From a virus: a stretch of DNA of 64,000 nucleotides. Position numbers and translations under genes: made by a program. Shown piece by piece: positions 59,241 through 61,407 of this stretch. Positions within the stretch are counted from its first letter, which is position 1, and each line of letters opens with the position of its first letter. The notes under the pieces were generated by a model. The model saw nothing but the letters and a program-made list of their open reading frames with translations, was not told the origin of the DNA and searched no databases. The DNA lies in the IMG/VR virus record IMGVR_UViG_3300045988_077276, positions 6,783 through 70,782 of that record, one strand, 5' to 3'.

Positions 59241-59275
59241 TTGGGGATACAAACCAATGTATCCCCAAAGTTTTT
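59241..59275 (+). terminator. intrinsic terminator after the fibre gene
   Basis: 10-bp stem ttggggatac/gtatccccaa, then AGTTTTT. Confidence 0.7.
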
Positions 59276-59303
59276 CACAACATCTCTTACAGAAAGGACA
59301 TCA

Positions 59304-59573
59304 ATGGAAATACTTACAATGGTATCTCTCATATGTGGTATCTTGGCATCTGTTGGGGCAATTATAGGGGTTATCTTCAAGTTTGTAATCATTAATCCCT
59401 TAAAGGTGTCAATCGACAATCTTACCAAGGTTGTCGAAACCATATTGAAAGATATAGAAACAAGTCGAGTAGACCGATACAATCAAGCCATACGTTTAAC
59501 ATCTATTGAATCGGATGTTAAGCACTTGGATTCTCGCATGGAGTCCATTGAGGAATCCTTGAAAGGGCGGTGA
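59304..59573 (+). CDS. N-terminal-TM coiled-coil protein of the lysis cassette
   Basis: AAAGGA lies before ATG 59304. MEILTMVSLICGILASVGAIIGVIF, then a coiled coil. Confidence 0.4.
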   Translation: MEILTMVSLICGILASVGAIIGVIFKFVIINPLKVSIDNLTKVVETILKDIETSRVDRYNQAIRLTSIESDVKHLDSRMESIEESLKGR

Positions 59574-59962
59574 TACCAATGGATAACATTATTGATTCAA
59601 TCAAGGGTTATTATCATAGAATACGAACCGCCCATATAAACATAAAATCACTACAGTTTGTCAAGTTTGTTATTACAACATCGTTTATCCCAATATTTAT
59701 GTACTTGGGAGTTTGGTTGTATGCAATCTATGCAATGCACGTTGGTATAAACGTAACAATTCTTGTTTCTCTATTATCGGAATTGCGATTGTTCGTATCC
59801 GTAATCTTCTCAACACAAACTGTTGCTGGCGTACTTGCGTATGGCGTTGCTTTAATTGATTCAGATGGCAATGGAGAATCCGATGAATTAGATGCCAAAG
59901 CACACGCCCAATCTAAAAATACTATTGATACTACTATGGATACAACAGGAGATACGAAATGA
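59570..59962 (+). CDS. holin (candidate)
   Basis: Three hydrophobic segments and a charged C-terminal tail. Sits immediately upstream of, and overlapping, the endolysin gene. Confidence 0.5.
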   Translation: MIPMDNIIDSIKGYYHRIRTAHINIKSLQFVKFVITTSFIPIFMYLGVWLYAIYAMHVGINVTILVSLLSELRLFVSVIFSTQTVAGVLAYGVALIDSDGNGESDELDAKAHAQSKNTIDTTMDTTGDTK

Positions 59963-60537
59963 GAACATTAACTAAAGATGAATTAATGAGTATGGCAACC
60001 AGTGCAAGAGGTTATATTGACAACATCTACTTGCATTGGTCTGCTGGTCATTACAATCAGAGCCATACCGATAAATACCATATCTGCATTGACAAAGATG
60101 GTAATATGTATACCGATGTTGACTTATTAACAGAGCATCGTGACCATACATATATGCGAAACAGTCGTGCCATCGGTATCACTTTGAATGGATGTTTCGA
60201 TGCCATCAATCCGTCAAACATGGGTACAGAACCACCAACTGACAAACAGATTTATGCACTTAGTTGGTTAGTAGCGTTATTGTGTGTTCAAATCGGCATC
60301 CCATTGGATTTACAGCACGTTATGACCCATGCGGAAGCTGCGGACAACAAAGATGGTATGGACTTATGTTACATCGACCCAACGCCATACCCAAACAATA
60401 CCTATGGTCCAGATTCAACGTGCGAACGATGGGATTTGTGGGTTTTACACCAAGGTGACCAAGAGTGGTCTGGTGGTGACAATATCCGTGGTAACGCACG
60501 ATATATCGCACATAACGAGTGGGGGATTGACATATGA
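59959..60537 (+). CDS. endolysin, N-acetylmuramoyl-L-alanine amidase (Amidase_2/PGRP type)
   Basis: IYLHWSAGHY...YHICIDKDGN...NSRAIGITLNG...VMTHAEA fits the T7-lysozyme-like amidase pattern. No cell-wall-binding domain. Confidence 0.8.
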   Translation: MRTLTKDELMSMATSARGYIDNIYLHWSAGHYNQSHTDKYHICIDKDGNMYTDVDLLTEHRDHTYMRNSRAIGITLNGCFDAINPSNMGTEPPTDKQIYALSWLVALLCVQIGIPLDLQHVMTHAEAADNKDGMDLCYIDPTPYPNNTYGPDSTCERWDLWVLHQGDQEWSGGDNIRGNARYIAHNEWGIDI

Positions 60538-60800
60538 TGCATTACAAAATTGAAAAACCACCGCTATGGAAAACTGTTGGTACTGTGTTTGCCGTTTGTT
60601 TTATTGGTTTATTTGTGTGCGTATATCTATTGTTTTCAAACATCCATTCACACGAACAACAGTTGCGACAAACCGAAATTGAATTGCATAAAGCACAAGT
60701 GGAGTTACAAGTCACACGCCATGAACGGTCAATATTGCAAAACAAAGTCAATACTTTAGAAAATATAGAATACGACCGTGGAACACTGGTAAGACCATAA
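60534..60800 (+). CDS. i-spanin-like protein (N-terminal TM plus coiled coil)
   Basis: WKTVGTVFAVCFIGLFVCVYLLF, then a QQLRQTEIELHKAQVELQV coiled coil. ATGA overlap with the endolysin gene. Confidence 0.45.
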   Translation: MMHYKIEKPPLWKTVGTVFAVCFIGLFVCVYLLFSNIHSHEQQLRQTEIELHKAQVELQVTRHERSILQNKVNTLENIEYDRGTLVRP

Positions 60801-60810
60801 TGGAGAAACA

Positions 60811-61263
60811 ATGAATGAAACAATTAAAACATATATTCGGTCAAATCCAAAGTATTCGATTTGTGTTATTATTGGGATTGTTATGCTTGTTGCCATTGGG
60901 TTATTCCTATGGACAAGAACCAACAGTAACATTGACACAAAGCCAATACAAAACGCTACAAGAGAACTTGACAACTCTAAACAGTACAATAGACAATCAA
61001 TTGAATACAATCAACGAATTGGAAATGCAGTTGAACGCAGCCAAGTTATCAACGAGCGACTCGAACAAACAATTGATTCTAGCATCGACTCTAATCGTAG
61101 AACAACGGAAGCAATTGACAGAAGCACAGAACTTGTTAAAGCAGCAAGAACAGACGCTGCAAACGCAAAGAATCTCATTAGAGAAAGCCGAAATATACTT
61201 AACGCAGCAGAAAGAAATCATCAAGAAAGCACAACGCAGTCAACAACGTGCCAAACTCATTAA
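60811..61263 (+). CDS. N-terminal-TM coiled-coil protein (frame A of the overlapping pair)
   Basis: 150 aa. YSICVIIGIVMLVAIGLFLW, then a polar helical region. Shares the GGAGA RBS with frame B. Confidence 0.4.
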   Translation: MNETIKTYIRSNPKYSICVIIGIVMLVAIGLFLWTRTNSNIDTKPIQNATRELDNSKQYNRQSIEYNQRIGNAVERSQVINERLEQTIDSSIDSNRRTTEAIDRSTELVKAARTDAANAKNLIRESRNILNAAERNHQESTTQSTTCQTH

Positions 61264-61306
61264 TGTGTTGTTGGGTGCAACAGTTGTATATCTTGCGGTC
61301 AAATGA
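60815..61306 (+). CDS. signal-peptide plus C-terminal-TM coiled-coil protein (frame B of the overlapping pair; u-spanin-like topology)
   Basis: 163 aa. IRFVLLLGLLCLLPLGYSYG signal-like N-terminus, Leu-heptad coiled coil, and C-terminal LINVLLGATVVYLAV. The ATG lies 8 nt from the RBS. Confidence 0.5.
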   Translation: MKQLKHIFGQIQSIRFVLLLGLLCLLPLGYSYGQEPTVTLTQSQYKTLQENLTTLNSTIDNQLNTINELEMQLNAAKLSTSDSNKQLILASTLIVEQRKQLTEAQNLLKQQEQTLQTQRISLEKAEIYLTQQKEIIKKAQRSQQRAKLINVLLGATVVYLAVK

Positions 61307-61373
61307 TTGGATGGTGGTCTAATTAATCTCCGTAGTATATGACGGTGGACATATACATTTTATAATAAAAACA

Positions 61374-61407
61374 GGGAGCATACCTATGTGGTATGCTCCC
61401 ATTTTTT
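61374..61407. terminator. bidirectional intrinsic terminator between convergent genes
   Basis: Stem gggagcatacc/ggtatgctccc, with T-runs on both strands. Confidence 0.8.

Follow-up and report, generated by a model that had tools for sequence, protein, structure and literature searches.

Two co-extensive, out-of-frame genes behind one ribosome-binding site: a candidate terminal lysis module in phages of two-membraned Firmicutes

Can a single ribosome-binding site (RBS) in a phage genome serve two different membrane proteins that are encoded, almost from end to end, by the same DNA, and what might such a pair do at the end of a lysis cassette? The question is raised by a locus in the viral record IMGVR_UViG_3300045988_077276, of which a stretch of 64,000 nucleotides (nt; positions 6,783 to 70,782 of the record, hereafter the window) was analysed. 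Two open reading frames (ORFs), termed A and B, terminate its lysis cassette (Table 1). The Shine-Dalgarno (SD) sequence GGAGA that precedes both lies 4 nt from the ATG of A and 8 nt from the ATG of B. The overlap is co-extensive: within a dual-coding stretch of 496 base pairs (bp; 60811-61306) it takes in 99% of A, and the third sense frame contains 17 stops across the same span. Both sets of coordinates, the +1 offset and the single GGAGA had been described in a first-pass annotation of the window, and all were recovered when the sequence was re-read.

The same annotation judged two open frames of this length improbable by chance, a view upheld by back-translation and codon shuffling. When B was back-translated with the codon usage of the window, frame A acquired 8.5 stops on average, and not one of 5000 sequences was stop-free; the reciprocal operation on A put an average of 7.1 stops into frame B, likewise without a stop-free sequence among 5000. 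Depending on the protein, 5-11 stops are expected in the partner frame, with a probability of zero stops of <2e-4 to 8e-4 per sequence. Shuffling of synonymous codons within B, which retains the already biased codon set of this gene, still gave a mean of 4.1 stops in frame A (P(0) = 0.003). The bias is evident at the third positions of B, where T accounts for only 13% of bases versus 34% genome-wide, as is required for the avoidance of TAA, TAG and TGA in frame A. The double openness is thus no effect of composition and lies far beyond chance. Codon usage of both frames is about 1-1.6 standard deviations from the typical usage of the genome and gave no pointer to which of the two is older.

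IMG/VR, metagenomes and genomes yielded 192 related loci (193 sequences with the window). Of the 193, 188 have two full-length frames that begin with the ATG-n-ATG start, while the remaining five are contig-end truncations or frameshifted assemblies; apart from these, interruption of one frame by stops in close relatives, which the first-pass annotation had named, together with peptides from a single frame, as counting against two genes, was not encountered. The intact loci reduce to 120 unique sequences in 14 lineages, with nucleotide divergence of up to 40%; relative to the window, identity declines to ~49% (B) and ~42% (A). An exhaustive search with a profile of B identified 65 family representatives at 50% clustering, and the DNA of nine distant loci, matching the B profile at E = 1e-4 to 1e-20, was retrieved. 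In each of the nine the same relative frame holds an A-like ORF, 130-154 codons long, and their third frame has 10-26 stops. The dual-frame arrangement persists at a protein identity of roughly 20-30%. Veillonella genomes carry prophage copies of the pair, including V. caviae DSM 20738 (locus L031), V. parvula strains carry P0101-type genes, and one distant locus is a Megasphaera hexanoica prophage. The GenBank phages of INPHARED returned no match for the region, A or B by BLASTN and TBLASTN, and the family is known only from metagenomes and prophages.

The double start takes the form ATGAATG (n = 64) or ATGTATG (n = 56) among the 120 unique relatives. In the distant loci it reads ATGAATG, ATGTATG, ATGGATG, ATGCATG, TTGAATG or ATGTG; the start of A is an ATG 4 nt upstream (ATGnATG) in seven of the nine, the other two being TTGaATG and ATGTG. 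An upstream, out-of-frame start 4 nt before that of B is kept in 128 of 129 sequences (120 unique and nine distant). All 14 lineages present a strong SD (GGAGA, AGGAGG or AGGGGG) 4-5 nt from the ATG of A and 8-9 nt from that of B, and most distant loci display the same geometry, the exceptions being L193, in which A starts with GTG at +2, and L197, with a longer SD spacing. As an out-of-frame ATG within the SD spacer would compete with B, its persistence is unexpected if B were the sole gene. The spacing of 8-9 nt is nearer the usual optimum and B is thus probably the major product. Conservation of both frames and of the start offset in the distant loci indicates that the arrangement is old and actively maintained.

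Purifying selection on B is strong, with a dNN/dSN of 0.20 (95% interval 0.13-0.30) pooled within lineages. Selection on A is supported by four comparisons. Single-nucleotide changes synonymous in B would create a stop in A in 8.9% of cases, though none of the at least 375 B-synonymous codon changes observed in the alignment does so. In the window about 20 such single-nucleotide changes leave B unaltered and stop A, and about 31 leave A unaltered and stop B. Sites that are synonymous in B and nonsynonymous in A evolve 2.2-6.4 times slower than the synonymous sites of the adjacent endolysin gene in the same genomes (five of five lineages tested); those synonymous in both frames, only 2-3 per sequence, evolve at roughly the endolysin synonymous rate. 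The nine distant A-frame translations score 8-99 bits against a Veillonella A profile, and when the B gene of each locus was shuffled synonymously 200 times, leaving protein B unchanged, no shuffle reached the real score. Since synonymous sites should be saturated at this divergence, shared ancestry cannot explain these scores. The transmembrane (TM) segment of A has a hydrophobicity of 2.0-2.9 (Kyte-Doolittle, 19-residue window) versus the 1.2-1.7 expected from a by-product of the B signal peptide, an excess found in all 14 lineages (P = 0-0.034). As negative controls, an alternative-frame ORF of 69 residues in the upstream gene g88 is lost in most close relatives, and antisense ORFs over A/B vary from 31 to 158 codons within lineages. 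Across these comparisons the signal of selection is very strong for B and, for A, weaker in dNN/dNS but clear from the other tests. The comparison of synonymous and nonsynonymous change across homologues, proposed by the first-pass annotation as a check, thus gives signs of selection in both frames. Together with conservation as far as the Megasphaera prophages, this strongly supports its claim of two real overlapping genes on one RBS: A and B are, very probably, a functional dual-coding gene pair.

Protein A has a short basic N-terminus (K6, R10, K14), followed by a TM helix at residues 15-34 (nt 60853-60912) and a polar helix of ~110 residues. Its AlphaFold2 model comprises a helix at residues 13-37 and a single helix extending from residue 44 to 145 (mean pLDDT 68). 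Model and hydrophobicity bear out the N-terminal TM helix and polar helical domain that had been read from the sequence, and with an orientation taken from the positive-inside rule A would be a type II inner-membrane protein of i-spanin-like topology. All 34 A proteins compared match PHROG 18860 ("unknown function"). Against the Rz-like families phrog_7584 and phrog_214, A scores E = 0.03-0.05, and each family is matched at E<=0.01 by a single member of the 34. No Cys is found past residue 40 of A in 114 of 120 sequences.

Protein B opens with a signal peptide (residues 1-33, predicted cleavage between YSYG and QEP) containing an N-terminal hydrophobic helix at residues 2-23 and continuing into a disordered linker. 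The linker holds a conserved site, P-x-V-[YFH]-G followed by [STAQ], with small residues at -1 and -3, and an invariant VTLT motif lies after it. From its sequence this site looks like that of signal peptidase I (xVYG before S), which would make the signal a cleaved, non-lipoprotein one. AlphaFold2 predicts two long coiled-coil helices, 42-77 and 81-162, the second of which runs into a C-terminal anchor at residues 148-162 (LINVLLGATVVYLAV; nt 61256-61300) that is hydrophobic and helical, and rich in Gly, Ala and Thr. The end of A coincides with the beginning of this anchor. Signal peptide, coiled coil and C-terminal hydrophobic segment are kept in 65 of 65 representatives of the B family. The first-pass description of B, a signal-like N-terminus, a coiled coil and a C-terminal TM helix, is thus sound, with one correction that concerns the Cys noted in that N-terminus. 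A lipoprotein reading of this residue was rejected, as the sequence in the window (...LLGLLC...) is not a lipobox, defined here as [LVI][ASTVI][GAS]C in the N-terminal signal, and the Cys lacks conservation: in 27 of 120 relatives the first 40 residues of B are entirely free of Cys.

Searches by sequence and by fold revealed no significant relative of known function for A or B. Similarity of B to phrog_214 was detected in 10 of 38 members (best E = 4e-4) and to phrog_739 in 3 of 38, mixed with coiled-coil noise, and a few members of the B family weakly match phrog_1009. Insignificant long-helix matches, including SNARE and viral-fusion coiled coils (E > 0.008), were not counted as evidence.

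Every locus examined has A/B either behind an endolysin or as the last element of a holin-endolysin cassette, with four unrelated endolysin families represented. In the window the endolysin is of the Amidase_2 type, while in other lineages a GH25 or Amidase_3 endolysin directly precedes A/B; in the distant loci the pair closes cassettes of Phage_holin_4_1 with Amidase_2, Amidase_3, GH25 or Peptidase_M15. The lysis cassettes are therefore highly mosaic, with A/B as their constant part, and the pair acts like a portable module that ends lysis cassettes in diderm-Firmicute phages. It occurs in ~70-kb DnaE-encoding phages, the lineage of the window, in group-2 contigs of about 40 kb, in prophages and in a T7-like Megasphaera prophage, in which it has the holin/lysin genes on one side and the packaging genes on the other. 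The spanin genes 18.5/18.7 of T7 occupy about the same position. Hosts assigned by prophage are Veillonella and Megasphaera, which confirms the earlier inference of a diderm-Firmicute host.

Table 1. Features of the A/B locus and its surroundings (positions in the window)
Feature	Coordinates	Strand	Product	Remarks
TM plus coiled-coil gene	59241-59573	+	110 aa	phrog_1009, E = 3e-8; first in cassette region
Multi-TM protein, likely holin	59570-59962	+	130 aa	weak phrog_27828 match
Amidase_2 endolysin	59959-60537	+		Pfam PF01510, E = 3e-13
g88, TM plus coiled-coil gene	60534-60800	+	88 aa	between endolysin and A/B
SD, GGAGA	60802-60806	+		single, common to A and B starts
Out-of-frame double start, ATGAATG	60811-60817	+		A at 60811, B at 60815
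ORF A	60811-61263	+	150 aa	start ATG 60811; PHROG 18860 (function unknown)
ORF B	60815-61306	+	163 aa	start ATG 60815; +1 frame relative to A
Conserved ~45-nt element	61313-61356	+		immediately after the stop of B
Bidirectional intrinsic terminator	61374-61400			11-bp stem, 7 GC pairs, T-runs on both strands; closes operon

The multi-TM protein was assigned as a likely holin from its position upstream of the endolysin, a slot filled by Phage_holin_4_1 in the distant loci. A terminator-like hairpin (59241-59268) overlaps the start of the 110-aa gene. The i-spanin-like gene that had been reported immediately upstream of A/B exists, as g88; it is single-coding and accessory, being restricted to lineages 10-14. 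An Rz/Rz1-like pair within g88 was considered and discarded, as the TTG-initiated +1 ORF (60550-60759) that would form its second member is broken in most close relatives, with a longest open stretch of 25-42 codons. The terminator sits between A/B and a convergent DnaE-like gene.

Between B and the terminator lies an element of ~45 nt composed, in order, of GGTG(A/G)TC(C/T), 4-5 nt, ATCTC and an H-type pseudoknot. The first motif and the stop codon of B extend an SD-like complement of the 16S rRNA 3' end (e.g. TAAGGAGGTGATCC in L070). The pseudoknot (stem 1, 4 bp; loop, 1 nt; stem 2, 7 bp; a second loop with conserved YGGA) is supported by very strong covariation: 98.4% of cells are paired, versus 23-55% in slid controls, and 10 of 11 pairs exhibit compensatory double changes. 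The element is present in 12 of 14 lineages whatever follows downstream, occurs once in the window and is absent from most distant loci. Neither the A/B region nor the pseudoknot element has a match in Rfam. The element may be an mRNA 3' structure or a translational operator.

Database annotation of the locus obscures the pair. Single-sequence searches retrieved 57 proteins for A and 179 for B, and the A profile 710; both translations have many database relatives because gene callers take one frame or the other in each record. No record seen annotates both, the frame kept being seemingly random, so that one partner is missing from every annotated genome examined. The names given by JGI are misleading, "isoleucyl-tRNA synthetase" for one A-type and "septal ring factor EnvC (AmiA/AmiB activator)" for one B-type protein (P0006, P0142). 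One NCBI-derived database protein, P0051 (L140, BNJU01005602.1), is chimeric, changing repeatedly from one of the two frames to the other; its contig copy is frameshifted relative to all relatives and the chimera probably reflects assembly indel errors rather than biology. A third, antisense gene (a 75-aa ORF at 60997-61224, - strand) was rejected on the variable length of the antisense open stretches noted above. A second antisense ORF of 55 aa is found at 61011-61178 (- strand), with similar ones in L020 and L031; such variable ORFs are a by-product of the T-poor sense strand.

How does the pair compare with known lysis systems? In diderm hosts the final stage of lysis is classically the work of spanins. 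As in lambda Rz/Rz1, T7 18.5/18.7 and P2 lysB/lysC, A/B is the last module of a lysis cassette, its second gene lies in the +1 frame and the host has two membranes. A resembles i-spanins in having an N-terminal TM helix (N-in, C-out) and a long helical periplasmic domain within a total of ~150 aa. Known overlapping spanins, however, overlap only in part and have a separate start region for each gene, whereas A and B are co-extensive and start 4 nt apart on one RBS. The o-spanin is a small proline-rich lipoprotein, while B is longer than A, helical, with a C-terminal TM segment and without a lipobox, and no significant sequence homology of A/B to two-component spanins was found. An embedded o-spanin usually starts at 0.4-0.5 of the length of the i-spanin (PMC6139136), and periplasmic Cys residues for intermolecular disulfides, which are near-universal in two-component spanins (PMC6139136), are not conserved in A/B.

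The unimolecular spanin T1 gp11 shares with B an N-terminal secretion signal, a C-terminal TM segment and a periplasmic domain between them. The signal of gp11 is nevertheless that of a lipoprotein, which provides an outer-membrane anchor, while that of B looks signal peptidase I-cleaved, without a lipid anchor; gp11 acts alone, whereas B is always accompanied by the overlapping A. The periplasmic domain of gp11 has been described as beta-rich and that of B is predicted to be helical. The start region recalls lambda S105/S107, in which two starts a few nt apart in one ribosome-binding region yield two membrane proteins at a set ratio, although the lambda S starts are in frame and their products differ by two residues, while those of A and B are out of frame and yield wholly different proteins. 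Like A/B, phiX174 E (within D) and MS2 L are lysis-related membrane proteins encoded in an alternative frame of another gene. These, however, are short genes embedded in unrelated genes of very small genomes, while A and B are of similar size and overlap completely. With genomes of about 40 kb to about 70 kb, A/B phages are under no obvious genome-size pressure.

The envelope of the hosts gives these differences a possible sense. Negativicutes lack a Lol system, and outer-membrane lipoproteins have not been demonstrated in them (PMC5491611, PMC10665443), so that a lipoprotein o-spanin would be left without a sorting route; with hosts lacking Lol, Lpp and known outer-membrane lipoproteins, canonical o-spanins cannot work. 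The lack of a lipoprotein subunit in A/B can be read in the same light. A literature search found no paper on how phages of Negativicutes disrupt the outer membrane. For O- and U-spanins, a recent catalogue of lytic proteins demanded a lipobox (PMC12596118) and would consequently have excluded the A/B family.

The following scheme would account for the organisation of the locus. Both proteins would be made from one late mRNA, on which a single docking of the 30S subunit on the SD could place either of the two AUGs, 4 nt apart, in the P site, giving A or B. The ratio of the two would thus be fixed, and they would appear together both in time and in position on the membrane. A would insert as a type II inner-membrane protein with its long helix in the periplasm. 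B would be exported through its cleavable, signal peptidase I-type signal and tethered by its weakly hydrophobic C-terminal anchor, leaving the coiled coil and the conserved N-terminal VTLT segment in the periplasm. The pair would then most likely act as the functional counterpart of spanins and carry out the last step of lysis by disrupting the outer membrane, with A and B supposedly interacting physically and acting on that membrane. Contact with it might be made through the conserved mature N-terminus of B or upon release of the weakly hydrophobic anchor.

Taken as a whole, a true dual-coding locus that serves as a terminal lysis module and spanin equivalent is the best explanation of these data, with a probability of roughly 0.55. 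Its parts differ in strength. A role of A/B in lysis is likely; spanin-like disruption of the outer membrane, argued by analogy from gene position and topology, is plausible but slightly short of an even bet. More tentative again is the broad proposition that A/B is an ancient, Lol-independent spanin equivalent of diderm-Firmicute phages, shared across unrelated morphotypes, with a stoichiometry set by start choice. The spanin interpretation of the first-pass annotation holds in its analogies of topology, membership of the spanin families is not supported, and A/B is better described as working like a spanin than as being one, given that lipobox and Cys fail and homology is unproven.

Several observations weigh against this explanation. 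B has no lipobox, and a lipobox-like string occurs in only 6 of 120 close and 7 of 46 distant relatives. Neither A nor B has a conserved periplasmic Cys, B having none past residue 35 in 120 of 120 sequences. Rz-like PHROG similarity is marginal and mixed with coiled-coil noise such as tape-measure matches, and nothing significant was found on comparing both AlphaFold2 models with BFVD by Foldseek or the profiles with PDB sequences. If the C-terminal segment of B is a stable inner-membrane anchor, both proteins would reside in the inner membrane and no outer-membrane anchor is identified. The region downstream of the lysin is also the classic site of lysogenic-conversion genes in Firmicute prophages, and absence of the A/B family from monoderm-host phages could not be established. 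Translation of both frames is deduced from the sequences, and the rate comparison at sites synonymous in both frames draws on the very few such sites in each sequence. The OLGenie-style dNN/dNS of A is 0.30-0.63 in six of six lineages and 0.47 when the 120 sequences are pooled, having looked weak (0.64 to 1.0) in an earlier set of 29 sequences, but fake alternative frames of the endolysin gave 0.39-1.68, some with spuriously "significant" bootstraps. This ratio by itself would not establish selection on A. Estimator and bootstrap being unreliable, the case for A rests on maintenance of the ORF, the depressed synonymous rate and the shuffle-controlled profile test.

Those three results also bear on whether B is the only gene, frame A being an untranslated by-product of the composition of B (an abundance of Gln, Lys, Glu and Leu, and few T at third positions). 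Much stronger purifying selection on B, a naive dN/dS of ~1.2 for A, the choice of B more often by gene callers in some data sets and the fact that 22-58% of random back-translations of the B signal peptide give frame A a hydrophobic stretch would all fit. The reading is nonetheless very improbable: the protein sequence of B leads to an expectation of 4-11 stops in frame A and none is present in the 120 unique and nine distant sequences, nor has any arisen from the B-synonymous changes, of which about one possible change in eleven would create one. The competing upstream start is retained in all sequences but one, the similarity of A lies above every synonymous shuffle of B, and the synonymous rate of B is depressed 2-6 fold. 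Scarcely more than a token chance is left to programmed ribosomal frameshifting, by which the two frames would be fused into one protein or several. A frameshift site needs two long frames that are open together, and a conserved pseudoknot is nearby, after the stop of B; this structure, however, is downstream of both stops and most of the distant loci with two intact frames lack it, a conserved slippery heptamer was not seen, and each frame has its own conserved start at its very beginning, so that a fusion is unnecessary. The sole chimeric database protein, P0051, comes from a frameshifted contig, consistent with assembly errors.

A different doubt concerns function rather than coding. A and B may be real proteins that do not disrupt the outer membrane, acting instead as regulators of lysis timing (antiholin/holin-like or RI/RIII-like) or as prophage membrane proteins for superinfection exclusion or lysogenic conversion. 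The absence of defining spanin features and the possible anchoring of both proteins in the inner membrane favour such a role, as does a loose likeness of the double start to the holin/antiholin dual start of lambda S105/S107. Accessory genes typically occupy the interval between lysin and att in Firmicute prophages; on where the lysis module is placed, see 10.1101/606087. Such a role, however, sits less well with the close coupling of A/B to the endolysin (gaps of 0-14 nt), with no promoter-like site standing out upstream, or with a separate multi-TM holin candidate in the window and Phage_holin_4_1 in the distant loci. Envelope-spanning proteins, and not antiholins, typically have periplasmic coiled coils as long as ~110 residues. 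The pair is also found in the T7-like prophage and in the ~70-kb DnaE-encoding phages, where no lysogeny genes were seen in the stretches examined. Roles of this kind, the main rival reading, are rather unlikely.

Its conservation across distant relatives makes A/B the best current candidate for the means by which phages breach the outer membrane of two-membraned Firmicutes, and one that surveys requiring a lipobox would miss. The proposal is open to genetics, as single-nucleotide, frame-specific knockouts are possible and the prophage of V. caviae DSM 20738 is a candidate for induction. With two membrane proteins of ~150 aa encoded over ~450 nt from one RBS, the locus shows complete dual coding in a double-stranded DNA phage with unusual clarity and depth, and would be useful for the study of overprinting, two-frame selection and start-site choice.

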